A stretch of 32,000 nucleotides of DNA from Candidatus Saccharimonadota bacterium (GCA_015134435.1 CP043989.1:120001-152000); one strand, 5' to 3'. Positions 1 through 32,000 are shown, numbered from the stretch's first letter. A program made the numbers and translations. The notes: generated from the letters alone by a model not told the origin.

Positions 1-1123
1 TATTTTTATTTTTTTTATTTTTTTTTGCTAATGGAGATATATTTGATGGATATTTTGTAATAAATGTTGGTTGTATTATTTTTTTTTCTGTTGTAATTTC
101 AAATATTTTTATTATTAATTTACTTATAGATATTTTATTTTTTAATTTTATTTTTAATTTTTTAGCTATTTTTATTATTTTTTTATTATTATTTAAATCT
201 TTTTTTTTTTTAAATAATTTTGAATATTTGTATATTGATTTTTTTATACTTATTATTTTATAAGGTATATTTAAATTTATTATTTTTTTTTTAAATATTA
301 ATTTATTTTTATTTTTATTAATATTATTATTTATATAATAAATAATTTTTTCTGTTAATTTCATCATATCTTTATAAGAAGAATATGATTTATATATTTC
401 AATCATAGTAAATTCTGGATTATGTTTAAATGATAATCCTTCGTTTCTAAAATTTCTATTTAATTCAAATATTTTTGTAAACCCTCCTATTATTAATTTT
501 TTTAAATATAATTCTGGAGCTATTCTTAAATACATATTTTGATTTAATTTATTATGATATGTTATAAATGGTTTTGCTATATCTCCTTCTGGAATATAAT
601 GTAGCATAGGTGTTTCTACTTCTAAAAAATTTTTTTTATTTAAATATTTTCTAATTATATTTATTATTTTAATTCTAGTTAAAAAAGTTTTTCTTGTTTT
701 TGAATTTATTATTAAATCTAAATATCTTTTTCTAAATTTTATTTTTTTATTTTTTAATTTATTAAATTTATCTGGTAATAATTTTTTATTTTTAATTAAT
801 ATTTTGAAAAAATTTGATTTTATTGTTAATTCATTAGTATTTGTTTTAAATAATATTCCTTTAATTAATATTATATCTCCTATTTTTATTTTTTTAATTT
901 TTGGTATTAATTTTTTTTTTATATAATTTTTATTTATTAATATTTGAATTTTTCCTTGTATATCTTGTATATCTAAAAAATTATTTATTCCCATTAATCT
1001 TTTTGATATAATTCTACCAGCTATATTTATATTTATTTTTTTTTTAATTATTATATTTTTTGATTTATTTGAATATTTTTTAATTATTTTATAAATGTCA
1101 TTTATTTTTTTTTTTATATTCAT
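1..1123 (-). CDS. lysS: Lysyl-tRNA synthetase (class II), C-terminal part outside window
   Basis: The reverse frame is open from the window edge to the ATG at 1123-1121. Motifs seen: RKRYLDLI, EVETPML, YLRIAPELYLKKLIIGGF, ELNRNFRNEG, HNPEFTMIE, QPTFITKYPSNISPLAK. About 374 codons are present. Confidence 0.93.
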   Translation of the reverse strand, partial: MNIKKKINDIYKIIKKYSNKSKNIIIKKKININIAGRIISKRLMGINNFLDIQDIQGKIQILINKNYIKKKLIPKIKKIKIGDIILIKGILFKTNTNELTIKSNFFKILIKNKKLLPDKFNKLKNKKIKFRKRYLDLIINSKTRKTFLTRIKIINIIRKYLNKKNFLEVETPMLHYIPEGDIAKPFITYHNKLNQNMYLRIAPELYLKKLIIGGFTKIFELNRNFRNEGLSFKHNPEFTMIEIYKSYSSYKDMMKLTEKIIYYINNNINKNKNKLIFKKKIINLNIPYKIISIKKSIYKYSKLFKKKKDLNNNKKIIKIAKKLKIKLKNKISISKLIIKIFEITTEKKIIQPTFITKYPSNISPLAKKNKKNKN

Positions 1124-1124
1124 A

Positions 1125-1688
1125 TTATGAATTTATTAAATTTTGTATATATTTAAAATTATTATTTTTAATAAATAATTTTATATATTTTATTGATTTA
1201 ATTATTGATTTATATATTAATTTTTTTTCTTTTTTATTTGGTTTATTTAATACAAAATTTTTTAATTTTTTCATATTTTTAGGTTTACCTATGCCTATTC
1301 TTAATTGATAAAATGATTTTTTTTTTAAATATTTTTTTATATTTTTTATACCATTATGTGTATTTTTTTTTTTATAATTAAATTTTATTTTTTTTTTTCC
1401 AGGTTTAATATTTATTTCATCATGTATTATTAATATATTTTTATTTTTTATATTAATTTTTTTTTTTATTTTTAATATATATTTTCCAAAATTATTTATA
1501 TATGTTTTTGGTATATATATATTAATTATTTTATTATTTATATTAATTTTATATATTTTATTAAATTTTATATTTTTTAAAAAATTATTATTTATTAATT
1601 TATTTATAAATCATATTCCTACATTATGTCTTGTATTAAATAATGTTTTATTATAATTTCCCATTCCTATTATTAATTTTATACACAT
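1125..1688 (-). CDS. pth: Peptidyl-tRNA hydrolase
   Basis: 187 aa. It is absent from the ORF track because of an early in-frame TGA at the conserved Trp (TRHNVGIW-F versus E. coli TRHNAGAWF). Other motifs: LIIGMGN, IHDEIN, THNGIKN, LRIGIGKP, FVLNKP. The TAA stop at 1125-1127 abuts the lysS ATG. Confidence 0.9.
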
Positions 1689-1784
1689 TTTATATTTTAA
1701 TTATATTTTATAAATTAATATTATTTATAATATATTATATATTATTATTTATTTTATATATAATAAAATTATATTGGTGAATTT

Positions 1785-2843
1785 ATGTCAGATAAAATTA
1801 ATTTTGATATTTCTTATATTAATAAAAAAATTAAAAAAATTAGTTTATTATTAAATAATAATTTTTTGTATAATGATTATAAAAATTTAAATTTAATAAA
1901 TAAATATAAAAAATTATGTAAAATTAAAAATTATTTTAATAATTTAAATAAATATTCTAAAGAATTAAAAGATGTAAAATTATTAATTAATGATAAAGAA
2001 TTAAATATTTTAGTGAAAGATGAAATATTTAGGTTAAATAATTTAATTAATTATTATAATAATAAATTAAAAAAATATTTTTTTAACTTAAATAAAGATA
2101 AAAATGATTCATTAAATGCTTATTTAGAAATACATTCTGGTACAGGTGGTTATGAAGCTTCATTATTTACTTTAGATTTATTTAAAATGTATGTGAAATA
2201 TATAGAATCAATGAAATGAAAAATAAAATTAATAAATATTAATGAAAATTTTTTAAATGGTTATAAAGAAATATTATTTAAAGTTATTGGTAATAATGTT
2301 TATGGAAATTTAAAATTTGAATCAGGTGGACATAGAGTACAAAGAATACCAAAAACTGAATCTCAAGGTCGTATTCATACTTCTACATGTATAGTTGCTG
2401 TTATACCTGATATACCATTTAATGATTTACCTATAATTAATAATAATGATATAAAAATAAATACTTTTAAATCTTCTGGAGCAGGTGGACAACATGTTAA
2501 TACTACAGATTCTGCTGTTAGAATAACTCATATACCTACTGGTATTGTTGTTGAATGTCAACAAGAAAGATCTCAACATAAAAATAAATCTAGAGCATTA
2601 GAAGTTTTAAAAGCTAGAATTTATAATTTAGAATTAAATAAAAGAAATAAAAAAAAATGTAATGATAAAAAAAAATTATTAGGTACTGGTTTTAGATTTG
2701 ATAGAAATCGTACTTATAATTTTATTCAAAATAGAGTAACTGATCATCGTATAAATTTTACTTCATATTCTTTAAATAAAATATTAAATGGTAATTTAAA
2801 TTTATTAATAAAACTTTTAATTAAAAAATATTATAAAATGTAA
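1785..2843 (+). CDS. prfA: Peptide chain release factor 1
   Basis: ORF 1785..2219 continues in frame through TGA 2217-2219, the conserved Trp of the RF1 'RRWRVE' region. It contains a PKT (PxT) tripeptide in [14 protein letters not shown] and the GGQ motif [27 protein letters not shown] stop at 2841-2843. Confidence 0.95.
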
Positions 2844-2847
2844 TATT

Positions 2848-3690
2848 ATGTATATATATAAATGATTAAAAAAAGTTAAATTATATTATTTTAATAATTA
2901 TATATATAAAGAATCCTTTATATTATTAAAATATGTATTAAAAAAAAATATATTATGAATAATTATTAATATGAAAAATTATAAATTGAATAATTTAGAA
3001 TTACAATTTTTAAATTTTTTATTAATTAGAAGATTAAAAGGTGAACCAATTAATTATATAATTGGTAAATGTTATTTTTTAAATTTTAAATATAAAATAT
3101 ATTTTGATATTTTTATTCCTCGTCAAGATAGTGAAATAATGGTTGAATATATTATTTATTTAATTAAAATAAATAATTTTAAATTTATACTTGATTTAGG
3201 TACTGGATGTGGTGCTATAGCTATATCTATAGCTAAAATTTTTCCTAAAATTTTTGTTATGGGTGTTGATATAAATTATTTATCTATTAATTTATCTAAA
3301 TATAATTCTTTTAAATTAAATTTAAAAAATATTTTTTTTAATAAAAGTAATTGATTTTCTTATTTTAAAAAAAAAAATAATAAATTTGATATTATTGTTA
3401 GTAATCCTCCTTATATTAATAAATATTATAATCATTATAATAATAATTTAAGATTTGAATCTTATATATCTTTATTTTCAAATTATAATGGTATGAAAGA
3501 TATTATATATATAATATTAAATTCTTATTATTATTTAAATAATTATGGTTGATTAATAATAGAACATTGTTTTACACAAGTTAATATAATTAATTTTTTT
3601 TTTAATTTTAGAGGTTATTATAATATATTTAATTATAAAGATTATAATAATAAATTTCGTTTTACTGTAGGACAAAAATTAATTAATTAA
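2848..3690 (+). CDS. prmC: Release-factor glutamine N5-methyltransferase (HemK/PrmC)
   Basis: It extends ORF 2971..3354 in both directions through four in-frame TGA codons (2863, 2953, 3352, 3550). N-terminus is MYIYKW-LKK (E. coli MEYQHWLRE). SAM motif LDLGTGCGAIA and NPPY motif (IVSNPPYI) are present. TAA stop at 3688-3690. Confidence 0.9.
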
Positions 3691-5403
3691 TTATATATTT
3701 TTTAAAATTGGTATTCCTAGAATATATAATGATATTTTAATTATTTTTCCTATTATTGATATTAATTTTAATTTACTTTTTTTTTTTTTAATATTTTTTA
3801 AATTATAAATATTTTCTAATTCATAAAATTTTGAAAAATATATTGTTAAATTATATAAATATTTACATATTTCATGTGTAGTTCCATTTTTATATGATTT
3901 TTTTATTATTTCTTCAAAATTTAATATTTTTTTAGATATTATTAATTCTATTTTATTAGATATATAAAAATTATTATTTAATATACATTTAGTTATATTA
4001 GTATTATTTTTTTTTAGTAAAGATAATATTCTTGTATATGCATATTGTATATATGGTCCAGTATTATTTTTTAATAAAATTATTTTTTTAAAATTAAATA
4101 TATAATTTTTTGTTCTTTTTTTAGATAAATCCATATATTTTATAGCTCCAATTGCTATTTTTTTTGATATTCTATATATTTTTTGTTTATTATATATATA
4201 TTTATATTTTTTAAAATATTTTTTTTTTATATATTTTATAGTTTTTTTAATTATTTTTTTTAATTTTATATTTTTTCCTTTTCTTGTTTTAAATGGTTTT
4301 TTATTTTTATTTAATATATTTCCAAAATAATAATGTATTAATTTTATTTTTTTTGGTATATATTTAGCTTTTTTTGTTATTAAAAATATATTTTTCATAT
4401 ATTCTTTTTGTCTTATATCTGTTAAATATATAATTTTATTTATTTTATATTTTTTATATCTATATTTTATACATGCTATATCTATAGTACTATATAAATA
4501 AGCACCATCTTTTTTTTGAATTATAATATTAAAATTATTTTTTTTATTTTTAATTAAAATTGTTTTTTTATCTTTTATAGCTATATTTTTTTTTATTAAA
4601 TCTTTTACTATATATTTTAATTTATTTTTATAATAACTTTCTCCAAATATATTTTTTTTAGATAATTTTATATTTAATTTTTTATATATTTTTTCATTTT
4701 CTAATATATTTATATTTATAATTTTTTTTCATATATAAATATTATTTTTATTATTATTTTGTAATTTTAATGTATTTTTTCTACATTTTTTAGCAAAATT
4801 TTTATTTTTTAAAAACATTAATTGTGATTTTTTATATATTTTTTCTAATTTTTTTATATTACATTTATTTATATTTATTTTATTTTTTTTTATTCATGTT
4901 ATTATTATTCCAAATTGATTACCTCAATCTCCTATATGATTCATTTTTATTATTTTATCTCCTAATAAATAAGATATATTTGATATACAATCTCCTAAAA
5001 TTGTTGATCTTAAATGACCTATATGCATTTCTTTAGATATATTTGGTGATGAATAATCTATTATTATTTTATTTTTTTTTTTATTTTTTATTCCAAAATT
5101 TTTTATTTTAGATTTTTTATTTATTATTTTTTCAATTTCTTTTTTTTTTATATATATATTTATTATTCCTGGTTTTATAGTATTTATTTTTTTAAATATT
5201 TTATATTTTTTTAAATTTTTTATTAAATTAAAAATTATTTTTTTTTTGTTTATATTTTCTTTATTTGATATATTTATAATTCCATAAATTTGATAATCAC
5301 TAAATTTATAATTATTTTTTATATTATATTTATATTTTTTTTTAATATTATATTTTTTTAAAATTTTTTTAATTTCTTTTTTTATTATATTTTTAATATT
5401 CAT
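3691..5403 (-). CDS. argS: Arginyl-tRNA synthetase
   Basis: ORF pieces 4924..5403 and 3691..4398 are in the same frame and are joined through TGA codons. The HIGH region is PNISKEMHIGHLRSTILGD. The C-terminal anticodon-binding region is typical of ArgRS. About 570 aa. Confidence 0.9.
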
Positions 5404-5515
5404 AATTTATATTATATTATTTATAATTTAATTTTAATTTATTTATTATTTTAATTTTATTAATATATAATAAAATATTATATTATTTTTTAATTATAAA
5501 TAATTGAGTTATATT

Positions 5516-7168
5516 ATGAATATTTATTGTAATGATTTAAAAATTAAAGATATTGATAAAGAGGTAAATTTATTTGGTTGAGTAAATAATATAAAATTAT
5601 TAAAAAATATAATTTTTATAGATTTTAGAGATATTAGTGGTTATATACAAATTTTATGTAAAAAAAATATTGTTCATTTATGAAATGATATTTTATTATT
5701 AAATAATGAATCTTGTATTGAAGTATTTGGTATAGTAAAAAAAAAAGATAAATTAAATATAGAAATATTAGCTTATTATATAAATGTATTAAATTATTCT
5801 ATTTCTTTACCTTTAGATATAAATAATATTAATAATTCTGAAAATATTAGATTAAAGTATCGTTATTTAGATTTAAGAAGAAGAGATATGTTAAATGTAG
5901 TTAAATTAAAATCTAATATTAAATTTTTTATTAATAATTTTTTTTTTAAAAGAAATTTTATAGAAATTGAAACTCCTTTTTTATCTAAATCTTTTTATGA
6001 GGGTGCTAATAGTTATAAAATTATTAGTAGAATATATAAAAATAAATTTTATTCTTTACCTCAATCTCCTCAAATATTTAAACAATTATTAATGATTTCT
6101 GGTATAAATAAATATTATCAAATTGTAAAATGTTTTAGAGATGAAGATTTACGTTCTGATCGTCAACCAGAATTTACTCAATTAGATATTGAAATGTCTT
6201 TTGTAGATTTTGATGTATTATTTAATTTAATAAATAATTTAATTTTTAAAATATTTTTAAGATTTAAAAATTATAAAATTATTAATTGTTTTAATAAATT
6301 AAATTATATTGATTCTATTAATAATTTTGGTACAGATAAACCTGATTTACGTAATTCTGTAAAATATAATTTTGATTTTTCTTTATTTTTATTTAAATAT
6401 TTTTTTAAAGAAAAGAAGATAGATAATATAAAAACTATTATAATTAATAATATTTTTAATATATCTAATATAAATTTAATTTTTAATTTTTTTAATAAAA
6501 AAAAAATTAAAAATTATTGTTGTATATATATATATAATAAAAAAAATAATATTTTTAAATATAAAATTTTTGGAAATTTAAATATTAATGATTATTATAT
6601 TGATAAAATATTTTCTTATCTAAATTTATCTATAAATACTTTTATTTCTATAATTTTATTAGATGATAATATAGATAAAAAAATATTAGTTAATATTAGA
6701 GATTATTATTGTAAAATTTTTAATTTATTTAAAAATGGTTTTTATCCTATATGGATAATTAATTTTCCTATGTTTTTTTATAATAAAAATAATGATATTA
6801 GTGCTTATCATCATCCATTTACTATGCCTTTAAATATAAATTTAAATAAATTAAAATCTATTAATAATTATAATTTATTATTAGCTAATTCTTATGATTT
6901 GGTAATTAATGGTTATGAATTATGTAGTGGTTCTCAAAGAATACATAAATATTATATTCAAAAAGAAATATTTAAAATATTAAATATAGGTAATAAATAT
7001 AATTTTTTTTTAAATTCATTAAAATATGGAGCTCCTCCTCATTTAGGTATAGCTTTGGGTTTAGATAGATTAATTATGTTAATAAGTGGTTTTAAAAGTA
7101 TAAAAGATGTTATTGCATTTCCTAAAACTACTTCTGGATTATGTTTATTAACTAATTCTCCAGATTAA
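5516..7168 (+). CDS. aspS: Aspartyl-tRNA synthetase
   Basis: The ATG at 5516 is in frame with ORF 5888..7168. TGA at 5579-5581 sits at the conserved Trp (LFGW-VNN versus E. coli LCGWVNR). Motifs: LKYRYLDLRR, LPQSPQIFKQLLM, YYQIVKCFRDEDLRSDRQPEFTQLDIE, HHPFT, GLDRLIML, AFPKT. Confidence 0.95.
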
Positions 7169-7323
7169 TTTTTTTAATATTTATATTAAATTTTTAAATA
7201 AAAATTATATTTTTATAAAATTATAATAACATTATAATATAATTATATTTATAAAATTATTTAATTTTTTTTTTATTTATGTTAATATTTATTATATTGT
7301 ATTTTATTTAAAAGGTAATATTA

Positions 7324-7536
7324 ATGTCAACAAGAGTAAAAGGTAATGTAAAATGGTTTAATGAATCTAAAGGTTTTGGATTTATTACTCCTGAAAATAG
7401 TGATAAAGATGTTTTTGTACATTTTTCTGCTATTCAAAGTAGTGGTTTTAAAACTTTAACAGAAGGTCAATCTGTTGAATTTGAAATAACAGATGGTTCT
7501 AAAGGTCCATCAGCTACTAATGTGGTTCCTTTATAA
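7324..7536 (+). CDS. cspE: Cold-shock-domain protein, CspE/CspC type
   Basis: 69 aa: [56 protein letters not shown]. This is near-identical to enterobacterial CspE as I recall it. Trp is encoded by TGG here. A purine-rich AAAGG lies upstream. Confidence 0.93.
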
Positions 7537-7588
7537 TATATGTTATTTTAATTAAATTTATATTTATTGTTGTTTAGTTTTAAAAATA

Positions 7589-7652
7589 ATACTAAATTTG
7601 AATTATTTAAATATATGATTATATAATTAAATAATTCATTTAGTATTTTTTT
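7589..7652. terminator. Bidirectional intrinsic terminator hairpin between convergent cspE and the protelomerase gene
   Basis: Arm 7589-7610 (atactaaatttgaattatttaa) pairs with 7627-7646 (ttaaataattcatttagtat). That gives about 20 bp with a 2-nt bulge and a 16-nt loop. It is followed by a T-run on the plus strand and preceded by an A-run (a T-run on the minus strand). Confidence 0.6.
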
Positions 7653-7663
7653 ATAAATTTTTA

Positions 7664-9208
7664 TTATTTTATTATTTTTTTTTTAATTATTTTATATCTT
7701 CCTTTTATTTTTTTTTGATTTATATATTTTGATATATATTTTATATATCTTTGTATTAATATTGTATTAAATCCAAATTTTCTTAATAAATAATTATTTA
7801 TTAATTTTTCATCATTTTTTAAAAGTATTTTTTTTGTTAATTTATGTATTTTATATGCATCTTTTCTTTTTATTATTTTATGTATTTTTTTGTCTAATTT
7901 TATTAATTTTTTATATCTTTTATTTTTTATATTTTTTGGTTTTCATTTTTTATTAAAATTAATTAATTTAAATTGTTTATAATGTATATGACTATTTATA
8001 TTTTTATGTCCTAATATTTTATAAAAAAACATATCTTCATCGTATTTTTTTCATTTTTTATCTTTTTTAAATCATTTTTGAAAACATATACGTATATATA
8101 TTGATCTTGTATCTTTATATGTTCTTTTATTGTTTTGAAAAAAATTTTTTGCTGTTTTGTTAAATTTATTAGAAAAATAATTACTTATTTGATAATTTTT
8201 TGATAAATATTTATTTTTTTTTTTTTTTATATTATTTATAATATTTTTTAATATTTTATTATTTCTTAATTTTTTTATTTTTTTTATAAATAATTTTGAA
8301 TTATATAATAAATATATATTATATTTTTTTTTTTTATTATTTTTTGCTTGACCTTTAAATTGTATTTTATTTTTTTTATATATATATTTAAATTTTCCTA
8401 ATTTAATTATTTCTATCATTCTTCTTCCAGATACTGCTGATAATGCAAATGATAAATAAGATATATTTTTTATGTTATTTAGATTTATATTTTTATTTAA
8501 TATATTATATATTTCTTGTAAATAATTTTTATAATTTATTGTTATTGAATTAATTTTTTTTATTTTTAATTTATTATATGAATTTTGTTTTGAAATTAAA
8601 AATTTTCTTTTTTCTACTTTTAAATGAAATAATATTTCATGATTTATTTTTATATTTTTTATTTTTTTTTTAATTATTTCTCCTTGTTGTATTTTATTTA
8701 TAATATATTTATTTGATGAATATCATTTTTGATTTATCATATTTGTAAGTTCTTTTTTTCATTCTGGAAAAATTTTTATTGATTTTTTTATTATTTTTAT
8801 ATTATTTTTTGTGGAATTTATTTTAATTTTATTTATATTTTTTATTAAATTATTGATTAATTCTAATTTTTTATATATTTTTTTGAATTCTTTGTATATT
8901 ATTTTTGTATTTTTTATTTTACTTATATAATTCATTTCTTTTTTAAAATAATTAAAATTTTTTTTTATATATTTTATTTTTCTATTTAAACTATAATGTT
9001 TTATATTTATAAATTGTTTTCTTGCTCTAGATATATAATTTATATATGTATTTATAGAAATATTTTTTTTTTTTAATTTTTTTTTAAATTTTTGAGATTC
9101 TTTTTTATAAAGAATATTTTTTTTTTTTTGTAAAATATTTTTTTTATTTTCTATTATATTTATTTTTTTAACTAATTTTTTTATTAATATATTTATATTT
9201 TTTTTCAT
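7664..9208 (-). CDS. tel: Protelomerase / hairpin-telomere resolvase, TelN/TelK family (514 aa)
   Basis: One reverse frame runs from 9208 to 7664. It has five in-frame TGA codons (low coordinates 8759, 8723, 8072, 8051, 7943) and a TAA stop at 7664-7666. It joins ORF-track pieces 8759..9208 and 8072..8419 plus two unlisted pieces. Motifs matching my recollection of N15 TelN: NTYINYISRARKQF, NHEILFHL, LSFALSAVSGRRMIEI, FKGQAK, YKDTRSIYIRI, YDEDMFFYKILGH, HIHYKQFKLINF. The candidate nucleophile is Tyr410 (codon 7979-7981). Four of the five TGA codons align with TelN Trp residues. Confidence 0.88.
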
Positions 9209-9226
9209 AATTATTAAATATTTGTT

Positions 9227-9300
9227 TATATTTTATATTGTAACATATATAATAAATATACATATGTATATTTATTATATATGTTACAATATAAAATATA
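9227..9300. repeat. Perfect 74-bp palindrome P1, candidate protelomerase target site
   Basis: Verified base by base. Arm 9227-9263 is the exact reverse complement of 9264-9300, with the dyad centre in CATATG (9261-9266). It begins 19 bp upstream of the tel start codon. The core 9229-9298 is repeated identically at 9335-9404. Confidence 0.95.
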
Positions 9301-9440
9301 TTAATAATTTATATTTTTATAATTATTAAATAATTATTTTATATTGTAACATATATAATAAATATACATATGTATATTTATTATATATGTTACAATATAA
9401 AATAATTATTTAATAATTATAAAAATATAAATTATTAATA
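9299..9440. repeat. Perfect 142-bp palindrome P2, the second copy of the 70-bp core plus 36-bp inverted flanks
   Basis: Verified base by base. Arm 9299-9369 is the exact reverse complement of 9370-9440, with the dyad centre in CATATG (9367-9372). It shares 2 bp with the end of P1. The two dyad centres are 106 bp apart. Confidence 0.95.
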
Positions 9441-9600
9441 AAAATTAATTATAAATAATTATAACAAAAATAAAAATATTTATAAAAAAATAAAAAAATT
9501 TAAAAATATAAATTATATTATAAAATTATTATAATTTAAAATAAAAAAAAATAAATGTATAATAATTTAAATTATTTTAAAAAAAATTTTATAAATAAAT

Positions 9601-9666
9601 AAAATAAAAAATACTAATGAATTATTTAATTAAAATTTACAAAAAATTAAATAATTCAAAATAGTA
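9601..9666 (-). terminator. Intrinsic terminator hairpin downstream of gapA-like gene
   Basis: 9618-9631 (tgaattatttaatt) pairs perfectly with 9646-9659, and 9612-9616 (tacta) pairs with 9662-9666. On the minus strand the hairpin is followed by ttttttatttt. The arm sequence is nearly identical to the hairpin at 7589-7646. Confidence 0.6.
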
Positions 9667-9675
9667 AAAAATAAA

Positions 9676-10677
9676 TTAATTATAATAATATATATAAGAT
9701 GCTAAATCTAAAACTTTTTCAGAATAAGCAATTTCATTATTATATCATACAACTAATTTAACAAAATTATTATTTAATAATAAAGTAGATTTTGCATCAA
9801 AAATAGAAATCAATTTTTCATTATTAAAATCACTTGAAACAACATCATCATATGTAATACCTAAAATATCACGTAAATAACTATTAGAAGCTTCATAAAT
9901 ACAAGAACATATTTTATCATATGTAACATTAGAATTTAATTTAATATTTAAATCAATTAATGATGCATTAGAAACAGGAACTTTAAAAACTATACCTTTA
10001 ATTTTTTCTTTTAAATCAGGAATTATATAATTTATATTATTAATACTATTAGTAAAAGAGGGAATAATATTATTAAAAATACTTCTATTATTACGTCAAT
10101 TTTTAACAGAAAAATTATTAACTATTTTTTGATTAGAAATAAAAGAACGTATAATAGTTATAAAAGATTCTATAATACCAAAATTATCATTTATAACTTT
10201 AAGTATAGTAGCTAAACAATTAGTAGTAGAAGAAGTACTAGATACAATATTCTGTCCATTATAATTATAATGATTAATACCCATAACAAACATAGGAATA
10301 TCATCTTTAGAAGAATTAGTAATAACTACATATTTAGCTCCAGATAAAATATGCCCATAAGATAAATCTTTAGTTATAAAAACACCAGTAGATTCAATTA
10401 CTATATCAACATTAAATTTATTTCATGGAATATTTTTAGGTTTATCAAAAGAAGTAATATAAATCTTATTATTATCAATTAATAAATAATCATTTTTAAA
10501 ATCAATTTTACTATTAAATTTTCCATAAATTGAATCATATTTTAACATATAAGCTATATAATTAATTTTTAATAAATCATTAATAGCAACTATTTTAATA
10601 TTTTTTCTATACTGTGAATTACGAAATATTAATCTTCCAATCCTACCGAAACCATTTATACCTATTCTAATAGTCAT
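9676..10677 (-). CDS. gapA: Glyceraldehyde-3-phosphate dehydrogenase homologue with substituted catalytic Cys and His
   Basis: 333 aa, collinear with E. coli GapA without gaps. Matches include [49 protein letters not shown]. There are three in-frame TGA codons at conserved Trp positions. A strong GAGG Shine-Dalgarno sequence lies upstream. The active-site motif reads [10 protein letters not shown] where GapA has SNASCTTNCL. Confidence 0.85.
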
Positions 10678-11123: not shown

Positions 11124-11606
11124 TTAATAAGAAGAATATATAAAATAATCAAAAAATAATGGATTTTTAGCAGATAAAAAAGCAATCTTATCACATTTAT
11201 TATTATAATAATTACCACTATGTGATTTTAATAAACTTCAATTTATTTTTTTTTGAAATAAAAACATATTTTTATATATAAAATATCATAAATCAATATT
11301 TTTTATATATCTATTATTTGAATTTTTTCAATTATTTTTTTTTCAAGAATAAATTCAAAATTTAACTCCATTATATAAATAACTGCTATCAGTAAATATA
11401 TTAATATAACTATTAATATAATAATTTTTTATTAAAAAATTTAAAGATAATATTAAAGCCATTAATTCCATTCTATTATTAGTAGTATAATAATATCCAG
11501 CTTTTAAAATAATTTCCTTTTTTATAAATTTAATAATAGAAGCACAACCACCAGGTCCTGGGTTATTAATACATGAACCATCTATGTAAATATTTATTTT
11601 TAACAT
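11124..11606 (-). CDS. rnhA: Ribonuclease HI
   Basis: 160 aa. ORF 11355..11606 is extended through TGA codons. Motifs: IYIDGSC.NNPGPGG, TTNNRMELMA, FTDSSY, W-IYSW-KKNNW-K (E. coli WIHNWKKRGWK), KSHSGN..NNKCDKIA. It is divergent from dnaQ, as in E. coli. Confidence 0.92.
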
Positions 11607-11662
11607 ATATTTAAAAATTAATTATTAAAAAATTAATAATATTATAAACTAAATTAAATAAA

Positions 11663-12397
11663 ATGAATAAACAAATTGTTTTAGATATAGAAACAACAGG
11701 AATTAATTTAATAGAAAAACATTATATAGGACATAAAATAATTGAAATAGGAGCTATAGAAATAATAAATAGAAAAATAACAAATAATTTTATACATTTT
11801 TATATAAATCCAAAAAAAAAAATAAATGATAAAGCATATAAAATACATGGAATAAATAATTATTTTTTAAAAAATAAACCTATATTTTTAAATATAGCAA
11901 ATAAATTAATTAATTTTATAAAAAATAAAGAATTAATTATACATAATGCAAATTTTGATATTAAATTTATAGAATATGAATTAAAATTAATAAATCATAA
12001 AATTAAAAAAATTAAAAATATCTGTAAAATAACAGATACATTATATATAGCAAGAAAATTATTTCCAGGAAAAAAAAATAATTTAAATGCATTATGTCAA
12101 AGATATAATATAGATATATCAAAAAGAAAAAAACATGGAGCTTTATTAGATGCAAAATTATTATCAATAGTATATTTAAATATGACAAGAAAACAAAATA
12201 AAATTAATTTTTTAAAAAAAAAAAATATAAATAAAAAAAATATAAAAATTGATAATATTAAAAATAAAAATATTAATTTTAATAAAAATAATAAAAATAT
12301 AAAATATATATATATAAAAAAACATTTAAAATATTTAAAATATATTAAAAAAAAAAATAATAAATGTTTATGATTAGAAAAATATAAAAATAATTAA
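11663..12397 (+). CDS. dnaQ: DNA polymerase III epsilon (3'-5' proofreading exonuclease)
   Basis: Exo motifs VLDIETTG, IIHNANFD and HGALLDAKLL are present. One TGA near the end is read through to the TAA at 12395-12397. Confidence 0.92.
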
Positions 12398-12425
12398 TTA
12401 ATAAATAAAATATTTTAAAATAAAT

Positions 12426-14955: not shown

Positions 14956-14974
14956 TTATTAAATAATATAAAAA

Positions 14975-15047
14975 CACATCTGAGAGGATTCGAACCCCTG
15001 ACAACTCGGTTCGTAGCCGAGTACTCTATCCACTGAGTTACAGATGT
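14975..15047 (-). tRNA. argV: tRNA-Arg (anticodon ACG)
   Basis: Cloverleaf read by hand. The acceptor is ACATCTG/CAGATGT and the D arm is ACTCAGTGGATAGAGT. The anticodon stem is CTCGG/CCGAG with loop CTACGAA. The T arm is AGGGGTTCGAATCCTCT. No CCA is encoded. This is a GC-rich island. Confidence 0.92.
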
Positions 15048-15049
15048 AA

Positions 15050-15133
15050 CGATGAGAGAGGGATTCGAACCCTCGATGTTTTAAACATGCTCCCTTAGCA
15101 GAGGAGTACCATAAACCACTCGGTCATCTCACC
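15050..15133 (-). tRNA. serV: tRNA-Ser (anticodon GCU), class II with long variable arm
   Basis: The acceptor is GGTGAGA/TCTCATC and the anticodon loop is CTGCTAA. The variable arm is catgtttaaaacatc and the T arm is GAGGGTTCGAATCCCTC. It lies 2 nt upstream of tRNA-Arg, the same order as E. coli serV-argV. Confidence 0.9.
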
Positions 15134-15194
15134 AATATAATAAATAATATATAATATATATATTTTATATATTATATATATATTATAATATATA

Positions 15195-23936: not shown

Positions 23937-24039
23937 AATAATATATAATAATTGTATAAAATAAATTTAATTAATATAAATTTATATTAATATTTAAAAT
24001 AACTATAACATATATTATAATAAATTAAAAAAAATAATA

Positions 24040-24333
24040 ATGAATACAAAAAAACCTATATTAATTAAAAATATTTTAAAAAATAATATTAAAAAAAAAA
24101 ATAATTTATCTTCAATAATATTAAAAAGTAAATTAATAAAAAAAATTAATAATAAAATAAAAAATAAACTATTTAATAAAAAATATAAAAATTTTAAAAT
24201 AATAAATATAATTAAAAAAAAAATATATATAAAAACAAAAAATTATAATTTAAAAAAATATTTAATAAAAAATAAAAATAAAATATTAAAAAAAATAAAT
24301 TATTTAAATATAAAATATATAAAAATATTATAA
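24040..24333 (+). CDS. Hypothetical small, very basic protein; weak resemblance to ribosomal protein S20
   Basis: A 97-codon stop-free ATG ORF in almost pure A+T, where TAA is very frequent, so chance is unlikely. KKNNLSSIILKSKLIKKI and YLIKNKNKILKKINYL loosely recall S20 KHNASRRSMMRTFIKKV and GLIHKNKAARHKANL. Low complexity makes this weak. Confidence 0.35.
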   Translation: MNTKKPILIKNILKNNIKKKNNLSSIILKSKLIKKINNKIKNKLFNKKYKNFKIINIIKKKIYIKTKNYNLKKYLIKNKNKILKKINYLNIKYIKIL

Positions 24334-24646
24334 TATTAAAATATTTATAATATTTAAATAATTAATATAAAATATTTAATAAAAATAATTTAATCTATTT
24401 TTTTAAATAAAATATTTTTAATAAAAAAAATTACTATTATAATATTTAAAAATTTTTAATAAAAAATAAATTAAATAAATATATATAAAATTATATTTAA
24501 TAATTTATAAATAATTATAAAATCAATAATATAATATTAAATATAAAAAAATTAATTATAATAAATTATATTAAATATTAAATATATTATTATAAAAAAT
24601 TATTAATTAATTTTATAAATATTTAAATAAATAATTTATTAAAATT

Positions 24647-25570: not shown

Positions 25571-25633
25571 ATATTAAAAAAAATAAAATAAATATATTTA
25601 ATAATATTTAAAAATTAATTAAAATATTATTAT

Positions 25634-25849: not shown

Positions 25850-25869
25850 ATATTTAATTTAAATATTTA

Positions 25870-26145
25870 TTAAAAACATTGTACATTATCTGGTAAACAA
25901 GTAATTTTAGTTATTTGTTTTATAAAACCTTTAGGAAATAATTTAAATAAATAAAAACTATCATAATTACATTTATACTTTTTATTTAAAAAATTTAACA
26001 AATTTCTTATATTAGGAATAATATTATTTTTAAAAAAAAATAACCTATAATAAAAAATTATTCTTCAATAATATATATTTAATATAATACCTTCTTTTAA
26101 AGCTATATTAATAGCTATATTTCTATTTCATTTTTTTAATTTCAT
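25870..26145 (-). CDS. tusE: Sulfur-relay protein TusE (DsrC family)
   Basis: 91 aa, not in the ORF track because of two in-frame TGA codons. The C-terminus YLFKLFPKGFIKQITKITCLPDNVQCF matches E. coli TusE [45 protein letters not shown] matches QWSEPLAVVIAENEGISL. Confidence 0.8.
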
Positions 26146-26216
26146 ATAAAAATTACATTTATATTTTAACAAATATATAATAAAAAATAAATAAAATATT
26201 ACAATTATATATACTA

Positions 26217-27533
26217 TTATAATATATATTTACTTAAATCTTGATTAATAATTAAATTATTTAATTTTAATTTCACATATTTAGAATCTATTAAAATTGA
26301 TTTATTTTTATAATCATTAATATTAAAAGATATATCTTCCATTAATTTTTCTAAAACTGTATGTAATCTTCTTGCACCTATATTATCTGTATTTTCATTA
26401 ATTTTTCATGAAATATCAGCTAAACATTTTATACCATCATTTGTAAAATTTATTTTTATACCTTCTACTTTTAATAAACTTTTATATTGAGAAGTAATAG
26501 AAATATTAGGTTCAACTAAAATTCTTTCAAAATCTTTTGTAGTTAAAGCATTCAATTTTACTTTAATAGGTAATCTACCTTGTAATTCAGGAATTAAATC
26601 AGAAGGACTACAAAATTGAAAAGCTCCTGAAGCTATAAATAATATATAATCAGTTTTAACAACACCATATTTAGTAGATATAGTACAACCTTCTACTAAA
26701 GGTAATAAATCTCTTTGAACACCTTCTCTTGATACACCAGAATCACTAATTTCACCTCTTTTACAAACTTTATCTATTTCATCAATAAAAACAATTCCTT
26801 GTTGTTCAACTAAATTTATAGCTTTACGTTTAATATCATCAAAATTAATTAATTTTGATGATTCTTCTTCTATAAGAAAATTAATAGCATCTTTAATTTT
26901 TAATTTACGAATTTTTTTTTTTTTATTACTTAAATTTCTAAAAATAGATTGTAATTGATTAGTCATTTCCTCCATACCTGGAGGAGACATTATTTCTATA
27001 CCTAAAGAAGGTACATTAATATTTATATCAATAATTTTATTATCTAATTCTCCATTACGTAATTTATATAATATAGAATCTTTTTTAATTATATACTTTT
27101 TATTATTTTTATTTAAATTTTCAATTAAAATATTTAATATACGTTTTTCAGCTAACTTTTTAGCTTTTAATATATTTATTTTTATAATTTGATTTTTTAT
27201 CATTTTTACTGCATAATCTACTAAATCTCTAATAATAGAATCTACTTCTTTACCAACATAACCAACTTCAGTAAATTTAGTCGCTTCAACTTTAATAAAA
27301 GGAGAATTACTTAATTTAGCTAATCTACGAGCTATCTCAGTTTTACCCACACCAGTAGGACCTATCATTAAAATATTTTTAGGAGTAATTTCATTACGAA
27401 ATTCTTCACTTAATTGCATTCTACGTCATCTATTTCTTAAAGCAATTGCAACAGCTTTTTTAGCATTATCCTGACCAATAATAAATTTATTTAATTCATT
27501 TACAATTTCTTTAGGAGTCATTTCATTATACAT
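26217..27533 (-). CDS. hslU: ATP-dependent protease ATPase subunit HslU
   Basis: The start is [41 protein letters not shown], with TGA 27426-27428 at the conserved Trp. Walker A is [19 protein letters not shown]. Also FIDEIDK and [18 protein letters not shown]. It ends ..DLSKYIL with TAA 26217-26219. Confidence 0.96.
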
Positions 27534-27553
27534 AATATAAACCTTATATAATA

Positions 27554-28078
27554 TTAATAATATAATTCTTCTATAGTAAAATAATGATTAGTATATAAAC
27601 ATATATCGGCTGAAATAAATAAAGATTTTTCAACTATACAACGAGCATTTAAATTAGTATTTTCTAATAAAGATCTAGCAGAAGCAATAGCATAAGATCC
27701 TCCACTACCAATAGCAATTAAATCATTTTCAGGTTGAATAATATCACCATTACCAGTTATTATTAAAGAATATTTAATATCAACAATAGCTAATAATGCT
27801 TCTAATCTTCTTAAATTTCTATCTATTCTTCAATCTTTAGCTAATTCAACAGCTGATTTCATTACATTACCTTGATATATTTCTAATTTTTTTTCAAAAC
27901 ATTCAAATAATGTAAAAGCATCAGCTGTACCACCAGCAAAACCAGCAATAATTTTATTCGAATATAATTTACGAACTTTTTTTACATTACTTTTCATAAT
28001 TGTATCACCAAAAGTAGCTTGACCATCTCCACCCATAACAACTAAATTTTTTCTTCTAACACTTAATATAGTAGTCAC
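27554..28078 (-). CDS. hslV: ATP-dependent protease peptidase subunit HslV
   Basis: MTTILSVRR... carries the N-terminal Thr nucleophile. Also [30 protein letters not shown] (TGA), [22 protein letters not shown] 20-nt spacer with AAGGT precedes hslU. Confidence 0.96.
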
Positions 28079-28115
28079 AAAAAACCTATAAATATAAATT
28101 ATTAATAAAATAAAC

Positions 28116-28976
28116 TTAAATTATTTTCTTTTTTAAAAAATTTCTCATTTTTTTCATAGCATTTTTTTCTATTTGACGAATTCTTTCAGCGGAAACTGAA
28201 TAATATTTAGCTAAATTTTTTAATGTTTTTCTTTTTTTATTATTTAATCATCTAGAAATAATTATATATTTACTTCTATCATCTAATAAATTTAAAGCTA
28301 ATCTTAATTTTTTATATATATATTTATTTCAATTATATAATTCTATATTATTAGCAAAATTAGAATTTTTATCTTTTAAAATATTTAAATAAAAATTTTT
28401 TTTATTTAATAAATTATCATTGTAAAAATCTATTTTTAAATCTTTATTAAACATTCTAAATTCCATTTCAATTATATCTTTTTTATTTACATTTAATTTC
28501 TTTGAAATAAAATGTATTTCTTTATTATTAAATCATCCAATTTTTTTTTTAATTTTTCTTAAATTAAAAAATAATTTACGTTGAGACTTAGTAGTAGCAA
28601 TTTTAACAATTTTTCAATTTTTTAATATATAATTATATATTTCTGCTTTAATTCAATAAACAGCAAAAGATATTAATCTAACACCAAAAAATGGATTAAA
28701 TTTATTTATAGATTTCATTAATCCAATATTTCCTTCTTGAATTAAATCTAATTGAGATAATCCATAACCTAAATAATTTTTAGTTATATATATAACAAAA
28801 CGTAAATTTAATAAAATTAATTCTTTTATTGATTCTAAATCACCATAATAATAAAATCTAGTAATTAATTTATGTTCTTTTTTTAAAGACAAAATAGGTA
28901 AAGAATTAACCATACATATATAATAATCTAAATTATTAATATTATATAATTTAGAATTAACAATATTATTAATCAT
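28116..28976 (-). CDS. rpoH: RNA polymerase sigma-32 (heat-shock sigma factor)
   Basis: Motifs: [53 protein letters not shown], and the RpoH box [14 protein letters not shown]. Region 4 is [17 protein letters not shown]. There are several TGA codons at conserved Trp. 286 aa. Confidence 0.95.
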
Positions 28977-29085
28977 ATAAATACATAATAATACAAAATT
29001 TATATATATAAAAATAAATTTTAAAATATATTTATTAAATATAAAAAATAAATAATTTAATAAATTCTATATAATTTATAAAAAT

Positions 29086-29646
29086 ATGAAAAAAAAATAT
29101 ATTAAAATAACTTCAGGTATATTAAAAAATATTCATATAAATACTATAAATAATAAATTATTAAAACCTACTTTAGTAAATATTAGAAAAACATTATTTA
29201 ATTGAATAAATAAATATATAAAAAATAAAATATGTTTAGATTGTTTTTCAGGAAGTGGAATATTAAGCATAGAATCTTTATCAAATAACGCAAAATTTGT
29301 AATTATTTTAGAAAAAAATTATAAAATATATAAAAATATAAAAAAAAATTTAAAAAAAATAAATAATAAAAATTATAAAATAATTAATATAAATACATTA
29401 ATTTGATTAAAAAAAAAAAATAATATAATATTTGATATAATTTTTATAGATCCTCCATATAATATGTATAAAATATTAAATAAATGTATAAATTTAATTG
29501 AAAAAAATAATTTAATTAAAAAAAATAGTATTATATATATAGAAACAAATAAAAAAAATAATAATATAAATATACCATATTCATGAAAAATATATAAAAA
29601 AAAATATACACAAAATAATAAATATTATTTATTTATTAAAAAATAA
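29086..29646 (+). CDS. rsmD: 16S rRNA (guanine966-N2)-methyltransferase RsmD
   Basis: 186 aa. Motifs: LKPT...IRKTLFNW-I, CLDCFSGSGILSIESLS, FIDPPY. It is divergent from rpoH, as yhhF/rsmD is from the ftsYEX-rpoH operon in E. coli. Confidence 0.85.
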
Positions 29647-29661
29647 ATCATACATATTAAC

Positions 29662-31071
29662 ATGAAAAATAAAAATATTATAAATTATAAAAATTTAAAT
29701 AAAAAAATTAATATACAACCATATTCTATTGAATCAGAACAATCATTACTAGGAGGAATAATTTTAAACAATAATAAATGAGAAAATATATATAAAATTA
29801 TAAATAAAAAAGATTTTTTTTATAAATCACATCAAATAATATTTAATGAAATAAATAAATTATTAATATCAAATAAACCAATAGATTTAATTAGTTTATC
29901 AGAATCTTTAGAAAAAAATAAAAAATTAGAAATAATAGGAGGATTTAATTATTTAGTAGAAATTTCACAAAATATTAATAATCTAACAAATATTGATTAT
30001 TATGCAGAAATTATAAAAGAAAAATCAAATATAAGAAAAATTATAAATATAGGTAACGAAATAATATTAAATAGTTATAATCCAGATGGAAAAAATAGTG
30101 AAGATATAATAAATATAGCAGAATCAAAAATATCAAAAATTATAAAAGAAAATACAAATAAAAATAATAATCCTAAAAATATTAATATAATTTTAAAAAA
30201 AACTAAAAAAAAAATTAAAAAATTATATAAAAATCCAAATTTTAATATAACAGGTATAGATACAGGATATATAGATTTAAATAAAAAAACTTTTGGATTA
30301 CAAAAATCAGATTTAATAATTATAGCAGGAAGACCATCAATGGGTAAAACAACATTTGCAATAAATTTATGTGAAAATATTTCTATGTCTCAAAATAAAC
30401 CTGTATTAATTTTTAGTTTAGAAATGTCATCAGAACAAATAATAATAAAAATGATATCTTCATTATCAAGAATAGAACAAAATAAAATAAAAACTGGTAA
30501 CTTAAATTATAAAGAATGAATTAAAATATCAAATATAATAAATATACTTAAAAAAAAAAAAAATATATTTATAGACGATTCATCTTTAATTACTCCTAAT
30601 GAAATAAAATTAAAAACTAGAAAAATATATAAAAAAAATAAAGGATTAAGTTTAATTATGATAGATTATTTACAATTAATGAAATCATCATCATATTTAG
30701 AAAATAGAGCTTCAGAAATAGCAGATATTTCAAGATCACTTAAAATATTAGCTAAAGAATTAAAAATTCCTATAATAGCTTTATCTCAATTAAATAGATT
30801 ATCAGAACAAAGAGTAAATAAAAGACCATTAAATTCAGATCTTAGAGAATCAGGATCACTTGAACAAGATGCTGATTTAATTATGTTTATATATAGAGAT
30901 GAATTATATAATAATAATTCAAAAATGAAAGGAATTGCTGAATTAATAATAGGAAAACAACGTAATGGTCCTACTGGAAAAATTAATTTAATATTCAACG
31001 AAAAAATATCTAAATTTGATAATTATACATCAAATAAATATGAATTATTAAATTTAAATAATATAAGATAA
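29662..31071 (+). CDS. dnaB: Replicative DNA helicase DnaB
   Basis: The ATG at 29662 is in frame with ORF 30658..31071. Motifs: PYSIESEQSLLGGIIL, Walker A IIAGRPSMGKTTFAINL, FSLEMS, IMIDYLQLM, SRSLK.LAKEL..P.IALSQLNR, SDLRESGS.EQDAD, KQRNGPTG. Confidence 0.95.
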
Positions 31072-31180
31072 AATAATTAAATATATATATTTTTATAAAT
31101 ATATACATTATAATAAATATTAACTCTAAATATAAATTTAAAATAATAAATAAACGAATAAAAAAACTAAAAAAATAAAA

Positions 31181-31618
31181 ATGATAAATAAAGGTATAAA
31201 TAAAGTAATTTTAATAGGTAATTTAGGTCAAAAACCAGAAATAAGATATACATCTAATGGAAATAAAGTTACTAATTTAAATATAGCTACATCAGATATA
31301 TGAAAAGATAAAAAAACAGGTGAAAATAAAGAAAATACACAATGACATAAAATAATATTATTTGGTAAATTAGCAGAAATAGCTTCAAAATATTTAAATA
31401 AAGGATCACAAATATATATAGAAGGTTCTTTACAAACAAGAAAATGAAAAGATAAAAATGGATACGAAAGATATACAACAGAAATAATAGTAAATTCTAA
31501 AGGAACAATGAAAATGTTAGGAAAAAAAAATAATAATAAAAATATAAATAAAGAAGAAATAAATAAAAATAATAAAGATGAAGATTTACCTATAGATTTT
31601 GATGACTTAACATTTTAA
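31181..31618 (+). CDS. ssb: Single-stranded DNA-binding protein
   Basis: 145 aa. Motifs: [60 protein letters not shown]. The acidic tail is [13 protein letters not shown]. There are three TGA codons at conserved Trp. Confidence 0.93.
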
Positions 31619-31641
31619 ATATATATATATAAAAATAAAAT

Positions 31642-32000
31642 ATGAATAAATTATTTAGTAAATTATTTAAAAAATCAATTAAAAAAAAAAATATAAAATA
31701 TGGTTCTATTATAAAAGGAAAAATAATAAATATTAAAAATAATATAGTAATTATAGATGCAGGTTTAAAATCAGAATCTTATATTCCAATAGAACAATTT
31801 AAAGATATTAATGGAAAATTAAATATAAATATTAATGATATAGTAGATGTTTCAATAGATAATATAGCTGGAGAATGAGGAGAAACAATACTTTCAAGAG
31901 ATAAAGCTAAAAAATATGAAACATGATTAAATATAGAAAAATCATATAAAAAATCATCTAATATTAAAGGAATTATTAATGGAAAAGTAAAAGGTGGATT
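31642..32000 (+). CDS. rpsA: 30S ribosomal protein S1, N-terminal part (continues beyond window)
   Basis: Motifs: F.KLF..S......GSIIKGKII.I....V.IDAGLKSES.IP.EQFK, GETILSRDKAKKYETW-L, GIINGKVKGG. Confidence 0.92.

Follow-up and report, generated by a model that had tools for sequence, protein, structure and literature searches.

Protelomerase gene and telomere-like palindromes at the skew inflection of Candidatus Stammera capleta point to a linear chromosome with hairpin ends

What does an abrupt reversal of strand composition mark in the chromosome of a tiny symbiont: a change in gene content, a replication origin, a terminus, or the two ends of a linear replicon? The question arises from a 32,000-nucleotide stretch of DNA (the window) that belongs to Candidatus Stammera capleta, a beetle gut symbiont, has a GC content of 13% and reads UGA as tryptophan. 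A first-pass annotation had noted that strand polarity inverts within palindromes near 9.3 kb, beside a putative protelomerase gene, and had taken the locus for a terminus or a pair of chromosome ends. The palindromes are flanked by two arms.

1-9263, plus strand: tel arm, with lysS, pth, prfA, prmC, argS, aspS, cspE and tel; 4-fold AT skew about -0.5 in both gene orientations
9370-32000, minus strand: gapA arm, with gapA, rnhA, dnaQ, asnS, a porin gene, tRNA-Arg/Ser, alaS, htpG, dnaX, secA, rsmH, hslUV, rpoH, rsmD, dnaB and ssb; plus-strand 4-fold AT skew +0.37 to +0.52 in both orientations
from 31642, gapA arm: start of a 119-aa open reading frame, of which only the start is present

At 4-fold degenerate sites (genetic code 4), the fraction of A among A and T rises from 0.249 on the left to 0.739 on the right (Fisher p=2.7e-68), as the annotated rule for synonymous third positions had proposed. 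Plus-strand AT skew at these sites is -0.52 in plus-strand and -0.47 in minus-strand genes left of the palindromes, and +0.37 and +0.52, respectively, to their right; intergenic DNA moves in the same way, from -0.17 to +0.17. The plus strand is thus T-rich left of about 9.2 kb and A-rich beyond it for either gene orientation, and protein composition follows, with genes whose sense strand is A-rich encoding more lysine (20.6% vs 11.9%, p=1e-4) and less phenylalanine (3.9% vs 6.3%, p=0.002) than those with a T-rich sense strand. One part of the earlier description did not hold: homopolymer runs, said to be poly-T on the left and poly-A on the right, track the sense strand (lysine AAA codons) and reflect orientation, with 83 poly-A against 70 poly-T runs of length 7 or longer in the right arm, and with A runs no fewer than T runs in the left plus-strand genes.

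This homopolymer pattern, together with an all-site AT skew of approximately zero over 15-28 kb, is what might suggest that the whole flip is a local effect of gene content or orientation. A length-weighted per-gene regression that splits the sense-strand effect from the side effect gives +0.158 and +0.145 for AT skew (R2 0.95) and +0.177 and -0.115 for GC skew (R2 0.89), and the existence of a separate side effect, as large as the orientation term, indicates that the flip is not an artefact of either factor. Together with the 4-fold and intergenic sites, which flip whatever the orientation, and with the recurrence of the same flip at the junction in eight other Stammera genomes (p=1e-17 to 1e-65), this result refutes the gene-content explanation, to which we attach practically no weight.

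The sign change in AT and in GC skew is in each case the one that converging forks would produce. The plus strand is rich in T and G on the left and in A and C on the right, so that cumulative GC skew peaks at the locus, which is terminus polarity under the proteobacterial rule and agrees with the annotated polarity. Since the T/G-enriched strand is the leading one, forks would run rightwards to the tip on the left, where that strand is the plus strand, and leftwards to the tip on the right, where it is the minus strand. Within the window the cumulative A-T curve has its minimum at 9347 (all sites) and the cumulative G-C curve its maximum at 9130; the maximum-likelihood change point of 4-fold sites falls at 9023-9029 (2-lnL support 8906-9095), with such sites absent from 9208-9676 and the shift of the change point dependent on seven sites in tel codons 1-62. 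In the same eight genomes the distance from the GC-skew oriC to the junction is 0.456-0.494 of record length, an antipodal position that depends on the authors' oriC placement, to which the records were rotated; the flip and this position are those of an internal origin with forks meeting at the ends. A replication origin at the locus itself is highly improbable: skew changes sign at origins as well as termini, and many tiny symbionts are missing recognizable oriC features, but the polarity (cumulative G-C maximum and A-T minimum at 9.1-9.35 kb) is the opposite of that expected of diverging leading strands, the authors' oriC is half a chromosome distant, and the window holds no dnaA or mnmG-type origin neighbors.

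The gene to the left of the palindromes is tel.

7664-9208, minus strand: tel, a 514-aa TelK/TelN-type protelomerase, transcribed away from the chromosome tip
7979-7981, minus strand: codon of Tyr410, which a MAFFT alignment with TelK and TelN places opposite TelK Y425 as the predicted nucleophile

Judged by its sequence, tel is, as annotated, a protelomerase gene, and its product is a true homolog of TelK and TelN that is full length and retains the catalytic residues. The protein matches TelK (PDB 2V6E) over residues 26-498 with E=7.8e-83, and the Pfam catalytic domain ResT-TelK_cat (PF16684) is recovered over the full model (1-181) at 9.8e-22 and 77.8 bits, against a cut-off of 27. Among the other domains of the TelK-TelN type (Pfam PF20849 and PF20818 accompany PF16684), the muzzle (37.5 bits) and stirrup (30.2 bits) both exceed their cut-offs, whereas TelK_N remains below threshold at 21.2 vs 28 bits. 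Alignment with TelK, whose catalytic residues we take to be R275, K300, R383, H416 and Y425, and with TelN predicts R263, K289, R368, H401 and Y410 for the window protein. Stammera homologs of Tel number 15 (51-100% identity), and the R-K-R-H-Y set is kept in 14 of the 15 orthologs, which are just 51-79% identical to the window protein; in the remaining one (L009, P0014), the nucleophilic tyrosine and three other catalytic residues are replaced, so that either the assembly has missed a second tel copy or not every Stammera needs Tel activity. Outside Stammera, the closest relatives are those of phages N15, phiKO2 and PY54. We propose that Tel is a domesticated N15/phiKO2-type phage protelomerase, predicted to cleave its target and reseal the products to hairpins.

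A candidate target lies directly upstream of tel, where two perfect palindromes meet.

9236-9263, plus strand: tel-arm 28-nt telomere half-site, TATTGTAACATATATAATAAATATACAT, with a predicted hairpin tip at 9263/9264
9227-9300, no strand: pal1, perfect 74-nt palindrome, read as the tel-arm telomere plus 37 nt of read-through past the tip
9299-9440, no strand: pal2, perfect 142-nt palindrome, read as the gapA-arm telomere plus 71 nt of read-through, with a predicted tip at 9369/9370
9370-9397, plus strand: gapA-arm 28-nt telomere half-site, reverse complement of the tel-arm half-site
9264-9369, no strand: probable artificial contig-end join of 106 nt, composed of a 37-nt tel-arm mirror and a 71-nt gapA-arm mirror with a 2-nt overlap

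The longest perfect arm in 30 first-order Markov simulations was 18 nt, which puts the window's perfect arms of 37 and 71 nt far beyond chance. The 28-nt half-site occurs without change on the two arms of the window and of assembly L014 and in L006, differs by one mismatch in L013, and has a GTATA box and a TGT in common with the N15/phiKO2 telRL; in the window and in L014 it stands, inverted, at both ends, as in a hairpin-ended replicon. The predicted full site comprises 56 bp, with two 28-nt half-sites around a CATATG center, and its place upstream of tel agrees with the earlier remark that the skew inflection coincides with a protelomerase gene and its putative target.

Inspection of the palindromes, however, does not bear out their annotation as one target and a second copy. 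The right arm of pal1 stops exactly at the start of pal2, the two truncating each other at 9299/9300; positions 9301-9334 and 9405-9438 are reverse complements, a relation that the tel flank does not share; and each palindrome is symmetric within the flank of its own arm. This arm-specific symmetry and the mutual truncation indicate that 9264-9369 consists of two hairpin read-throughs pasted together, such that two separate telomeres would be artificially abutted here and the segment as written is most likely a joining artefact absent from the cell. Inverted repeats at contig ends have been read as hairpin read-through elsewhere, together with a 28-bp minimal half-site (10.1101/2024.11.13.623437).

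At this junction, other Stammera assemblies are interrupted by a contig end or a 5-N gap. In L014, the N gap is bordered by two perfect palindromes, each symmetric within the adjoining flank and running right up to the gap; arm-specific palindromes likewise end exactly at an N gap or contig start in L013, L009 and L006. Independent Logan contigs stop a few nucleotides from the predicted tips (L008, L016) or 15 nt past the center (L010). The window record runs continuously through the junction, and public records show one closed sequence, but none of the assemblies holds a junction of tel flank, core and gapA flank.

These observations bear on whether the chromosome is instead circular, with an ordinary terminus, two real tandem palindromes and a Tel that is inactive or acts otherwise, for instance in dimer resolution or DNA binding. 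The continuous window record and the one Tel devoid of catalytic residues are consistent with such an arrangement, and contig breaks by themselves are not decisive because a perfect palindrome longer than k breaks short-read assemblies under any topology, circular DNA included. We nevertheless consider circularity unlikely: a protelomerase that is intact and conserved, with perfect copies of its site alongside, would linearize the DNA, as TelN does at tos in E. coli; the inner spacer contains only mirror images of the two outer flanks, and in five genomes the palindromes stop precisely at one another or at an N gap, which a real double site leaves unexplained; and the three-part junction appears in no assembly. 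A search of the whole window, the inflection included, for E. coli dif at up to 3 mismatches gave no match, although a strongly diverged dif could escape it. A slimmer chance still is that the palindromes are library or assembly artefacts (chimeric inverted reads) and tel is a decaying prophage remnant at a circular terminus. Assembly errors do happen at this locus, because L001 ends in chimeric non-Stammera DNA, and the 142-nt length of pal2 equals k+1 for k=141, presumably the MEGAHIT default maximum; yet the same 28-nt core recurs in independent genomes and assemblers, always beside tel, and resembles the N15/phiKO2 telRL, and tel is full length with a conserved active site in genomes of 213-314 kb stripped of most other genes.

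We thus favor, at a probability of roughly 80%, the reading that the window spans both physical ends of the Stammera chromosome, joined in the deposited record, and that this chromosome is linear, with hairpin telomeres and an internal origin. The annotation had left open a terminus or linear ends, and the arm-specific read-throughs argue for the latter. Under a linear topology, both ends would be covalently closed hairpin telomeres, and replication would begin at an internal origin about half a chromosome from the tips, with both forks running outward to produce the mirror-image enrichment of T and G on the leading strand of each arm. Replication round the hairpins would yield a head-to-head dimer whose junctions are perfect palindromes, each with two 28-nt half-sites forming a 56-bp telRL-like site. 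Tel, encoded beside one tip, would then cut both strands around the center (CAT|ATG) through Tyr410 and reseal each strand onto its complement, restoring two hairpins.

Such a system has close relatives among the linear plasmid-prophages of Enterobacteriaceae, N15 (TelN/telRL, 'tos'), phiKO2 (TelK) and PY54, which have the same enzyme family and domain set; TelK is the best solved-structure match. As in Stammera, the N15 and phiKO2 sites are palindromic, lie directly upstream of the gene and comprise 56 bp, with two 28-nt halves and a GTATA box beside the center. Stammera Tel is, however, about 120 aa shorter (514 vs 631-640 aa), its site is AT-ised (center CATATG vs CGCGCG), the distance from site center to ATG is 42-55 nt vs approximately 190 in the phages, and, unlike in N15, phiKO2 and PY54, the system belongs to the main chromosome of an obligate symbiont and has no further phage genes around it. 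Borrelia, which uses ResT, has hairpin telomeres, an internal origin, a central skew switch, convergence at its ends, and inverted duplications and exchanges near the telomeres. Its chromosome and plasmids resemble our reading of Stammera in their hairpin ends, internal origin and inverted duplications, but ResT is a much smaller, distant enzyme without the TelK muzzle and stirrup, the telomere sequences are unrelated, and the phylum is another.

Two further systems place a telomere resolvase on a large replicon. E. coli lives with a chromosome linearized by N15 tos/TelN 3 kb from dif, as reported in PMC5862497, citing Cui et al. 2007. That strain would share with Stammera an enterobacterial chromosome, an N15-type protelomerase at the terminus, an internal oriC and forks running to hairpin ends; it is artificial and keeps dif and Xer, whereas the Stammera chromosome would be natural, long-lived and 213-326 kb in size. 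The title of a Stammera preprint dates the host symbiosis to the Paleocene. In Agrobacterium tumefaciens, the chromosomal resolvase TelA maintains an essential, hairpin-ended linear chromid (PMC3558466, PMC12494015). TelA is, like Stammera Tel, encoded on the chromosome, but belongs to a different subfamily and serves a repABC chromid rather than a sole main chromosome.

Taken jointly, the data give somewhat better than even odds that Stammera is the first natural enterobacterial obligate insect symbiont with a hairpin-ended sole main chromosome (213-326 kb), in which an N15-type phage protelomerase has been domesticated at the terminus and kept across sampled Stammera, the telomere-tel module hops between arms via inverted terminal duplications, Tel may replace Xer/dif dimer resolution where recombination genes are being lost, and the examined public records are mis-closed at this point. 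We know of no smaller linear bacterial chromosome, and found no paper reporting a hairpin-ended linear Stammera chromosome. If correct, this reading would add a natural enterobacterial case, among the smallest bacterial genomes known, to a very short list of hairpin-ended main chromosomes, and would make a phage protelomerase a core chromosome-maintenance gene retained amid the loss of most others. It would also offer a natural test, mirroring engineered linear E. coli, of what keeps most bacterial chromosomes circular, and of whether symbionts poor in recombination can do with less dimer resolution (Xer/dif/FtsK) and decatenation once the chromosome is linear. The examined public Stammera records would then carry an artificial join, an N gap, duplicated mirror sequence or a chimeric end at this locus, and annotation, synteny and iRep-style replication analyses should take the replicon as linear.

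Comparison among lineages shows that the tel module has switched arms, residing on different ones in different lineages, and that inverted terminal duplications occur in several genomes: a pseudo-tel in L003, a 330-nt repeat in L002, a 546-nt repeat in L005 and a cspE' copy in L009. Under the linear reading, this arm-switching and the one catalytically dead Tel would allow telomere evolution to be followed in a clonal lineage.

The strand-composition switch of this stretch centers on a compact junction between the tel arm on the left (aspS, cspE and the TelK/TelN-type protelomerase gene tel) and the gapA arm on the right:

7664-9208, minus strand: tel, protelomerase gene, 514 aa
9227-9300: pal1, perfect 74-nt palindrome, center at 9263/9264
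9299-9440: pal2, perfect 142-nt palindrome, center at 9369/9370

At 4-fold degenerate sites, the AT skew of the plus strand is negative to the left of the palindromes in plus-strand (-0.52) and minus-strand (-0.47) genes alike, and positive to their right in both orientations (+0.37 and +0.52, respectively); the first-pass annotation had proposed just such a flip, regardless of gene orientation. The A share of A/T at these sites rises from 0.249 to 0.739 across the junction (Fisher p=2.7e-68), and intergenic DNA obeys the same left/right rule. Per-gene regression returned a sense-strand effect of +0.158 and a side effect of +0.145 for AT skew (R2 0.95), and effects of +0.177 and -0.115, respectively, for GC skew (R2 0.89). 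On the 4-fold-site and regression results, gene content and a replication origin were both rejected as readings of the flip. Lysine and phenylalanine contents likewise obey the strand rule, as had been anticipated; homopolymer runs, described earlier as poly-T on the left and poly-A on the right, instead track the sense strand, with 83 poly-A and 70 poly-T runs in the right arm.

In proteobacteria, the leading strand is enriched in T and G. The plus strand here is enriched in T and G to the left of the palindromes and in A and C to their right, which under this rule indicates that replication forks converge at the palindromes. The cumulative A-T curve reaches its minimum at 9347 and the cumulative G-C curve its maximum at 9130, such that both skews change in the converging-fork sense at 9130-9347, in agreement with the earlier proposal that both flanks are replicated toward about 9.3 kb. 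Eight other Stammera genomes show the flip at their homologous junction, independent of locus orientation. Within the first 62 tel codons (9023-9208), the 4-fold third positions read TTTTATA on the sense strand, the rest of tel being ~80% A; this segment places the maximum-likelihood change point at 9023-9029, ~200 nt inside tel, from 7 sites only. The shifted composition is consistent with the situation in relatives (the loci L002, L009 and L013) whose inverted terminal duplication takes in the tel 5' end.

The tel product matches the sequence of the phiKO2 TelK crystal structure over residues 26-498 (E=7.8e-83), and the Pfam catalytic, muzzle and stirrup models score over cut-off, with the N-terminal model sub-threshold. 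Alignment to the TelK residues that we take to be catalytic assigns this role to R263, K289, R368, H401 and Y410; the claimed coincidence of a protelomerase gene with the skew inflection is upheld. Scanning genomes with the tel product gave matches solely in Candidatus Stammera capleta records. The 15 Stammera orthologues are 51-100% identical to the window protein and come from genomes of 213-314 kb; 14 of the 15 measure 493-524 aa (one, 316 aa), and all five catalytic residues are kept in 14 of 15. The closest relatives outside Stammera are metagenome proteins, ~36% identical, and those of the linear plasmid-prophages N15, phiKO2 and PY54. The Tel of L009, P0014 (L009 10001-11554, CP144771.1), is encoded by an intact 517-aa ORF with four of the five catalytic residues changed (R275K, R383I, H416Y and Y425Q in TelK numbering, nucleophile tyrosine included), and is predicted from these substitutions to be catalytically dead. 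L009 may have another, active tel copy concealed by the collapse of a terminal repeat, or P0014 may act solely in DNA binding or capping. The same locus holds a perfect 230-nt palindrome following an N gap.

As in N15 and phiKO2, the palindromic site of the window lies directly upstream of tel. The two palindromes have a 70-nt core in common; the longest palindrome arm in simulated sequences of the same composition was 18 nt. Compared with the N15/phiKO2 half-site, the GTATA box (positions 3-7 from the center) and a TGT (19-21) are kept and the remainder has been AT-ised. The terminal 28 nt are identical in both window arms, both arms of L014 and L006, with the flanks becoming arm-specific further out. 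A half-site of 28 bp is also the reported minimal substrate of another protelomerase, in a preprint that explains inverted repeats at contig ends by hairpin read-through (10.1101/2024.11.13.623437). The telomere core had no match in plasmid or phage collections, to which the low-complexity filter may have contributed, and self-blastn of the window returned low-complexity noise only.

Comparison of assemblies bears on why there are two palindromes. In L014 (CP144813.1), the gapA arm carries a perfect palindrome (3800-3881) that ends exactly at a 5-N gap, from which the tel arm starts with another (3887-3986), each symmetric in its own flank. Palindrome arms of 38 nt in L013 (taking in the tel ATG), 115 nt in L009 (extending into tel) and 29 nt in L006 (at the contig start) all stop at a gap or contig end, and in none of them is the symmetry lost through sequence divergence. 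In the window, pal1 and pal2 cut each other short where the right arm of the first meets the left arm of the second. Reverse-complementing the gapA-arm flank 9405-9438 gives the inner spacer 9301-9334, whereas the tel flank does not. Most simply, 9264-9369 would represent two read-throughs of different hairpin tips (or of L/L' and R/R' junctions formed by replication) that were strung together on closure of the record. An alternative, with pal1 as an additional, subtelomeric target copy at a genuine L/R junction, was rejected in view of the two arm-specific palindromes around the L014 gap; the tel flank-core-gapA flank order expected of a true circular L/R junction occurs in no assembly examined. 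The length of pal2 (142 = k+1 at k=141) invites interpretation as a pure assembler artefact, which we dropped in favor of read-through past a genuine end, since its length varies between records (29, 37, 38, 41, 50, 71 and 115).

Assemblies also break at this site. The CP1447xx/CP1448xx genomes were assembled from Illumina reads with MEGAHIT and rotated to a GC-skew-defined oriC, so that their 5-N gaps mark joined contig ends; such a gap lies at the tel site in 8 of 8 records examined, at 0.456-0.494 of record length. Three older-batch records (L006, L017 and L001) begin or end at tel. Over the last 843 nt of the CP043985.1 'complete genome' (L001 1-843), high-GC, non-Stammera sequence is fused inside the tel N-terminus; its composition, judged by eye, suggests host DNA, and the fusion resembles a chimera formed at the telomere during assembly. 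Among independent Logan contigs, L008 ends 2 nt short of the predicted tip, L016 ends within a few nt of where the deposited assembly of that genome (L015) breaks, and L010 ends 15 nt past the center, as predicted by k=31 on a self-complementary path. In L015 (3904-3988, CP144782.1), several positions distinguish the half-sites on either side of the N gap (GTAACATATAATATAAATATATA vs GTAACATATTATATAAGTATATATA). Divergence between the two telomeres of a chromosome is therefore possible, and would not be easy to reconcile with one palindromic site on a circular molecule. In L013 (~3700-3922, CP144768.1), a 29-nt unit (tattcaatttgttaaattttattttata) is repeated in tandem at least 4 times directly before the N gap on the cspE arm, whose telomere is missing from the assembly; the array looks like a subtelomeric repeat.

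The tel gene, together with its site, is found on either arm: on the aspS arm, convergent with cspE, in the window, L001, L005, L006 and L014, and on the opposite arm, convergent with gapA, in L002, L003, L013, L015 and L017. Linear replicons typically duplicate a terminus in inverted orientation and then lose one of the copies, and the same two steps would shift tel to the other arm. L003 holds a partial inverted tel copy (8901-9852, 82% identical) facing the longer one, L002 a 330-nt inverted repeat, L005 a 546-nt inverted repeat (9387-9932 vs 11559-12095, 92% identical) that takes in cspE, and L009 a truncated cspE'; we read these duplications as preserved intermediates of tel movement.

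Hairpin telomeres are a known mechanism in N15, Borrelia and Agrobacterium; what would be new here is a natural case on the main chromosome of an obligate symbiont that is enterobacterial. In the proposed cycle, an internal origin would fire and replication proceed bidirectionally to the tips, the hairpins would be copied round to yield a head-to-head dimer, and a Tel dimer would bind each 56-bp junction, make staggered cuts via Tyr410 and reseal the strands as hairpins. As precedent, PMC5862497, citing Cui et al. 2007, describes E. coli that propagates after its chromosome has been made linear with N15 tos/TelN at a site 3 kb from dif. A search of the window gave no dif-like motif, and the supplements of the Stammera papers searched contain no entries for xerC, xerD, ftsK, parC or protelomerase. 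A full-text search, which missed the 2017 and 2020 genome papers, returned no literature linking Stammera to a linear chromosome, telomeres or protelomerase; an earlier mention in those two papers is possible. A clade-wide genome preprint describes 'complete single-chromosomal' genomes, with oriC assigned from GC skew.

The window has a G+C content of 13%, and long ORFs appear only when UGA is decoded as Trp, with a coding coverage of 27.6 kb under code 4 vs 13.8 kb under code 11. Gene calling with table 11 was dropped for code 4 because it broke genes into fragments; nearly every window gene is split under table 11, and tel has 5 in-frame UGA codons. The gene set and local order (divergent rnhA/dnaQ, asnS-porin, alaS next to tRNAs, hslVU) suggest an Enterobacterales symbiont with a reduced genome. 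ARAGORN and Rfam found no RNA genes in the window other than:

14974-15134, minus strand: tRNA-Arg(ACG) and tRNA-Ser(GCT), between the porin gene and alaS

CP043989.1 comprises 212,704 bp (PMC11842425). The aspS-cspE gap measures 156 nt in the window (7169-7324), the Holliday-junction resolvase gene ruvC having been lost from this position in the 212.7-kb genome; ruvC is kept there in larger Stammera genomes (L005/L007, L009, L013, L014 and L015), with recA and mutH also kept nearby in L007 and L009. The secA-rsmH spacer (23937-24646) is unusually long, has ~7% GC, holds a tentative plus-strand ORF (24040-24333) and, with a plus-strand AT skew of +0.15, obeys the right-arm rule.
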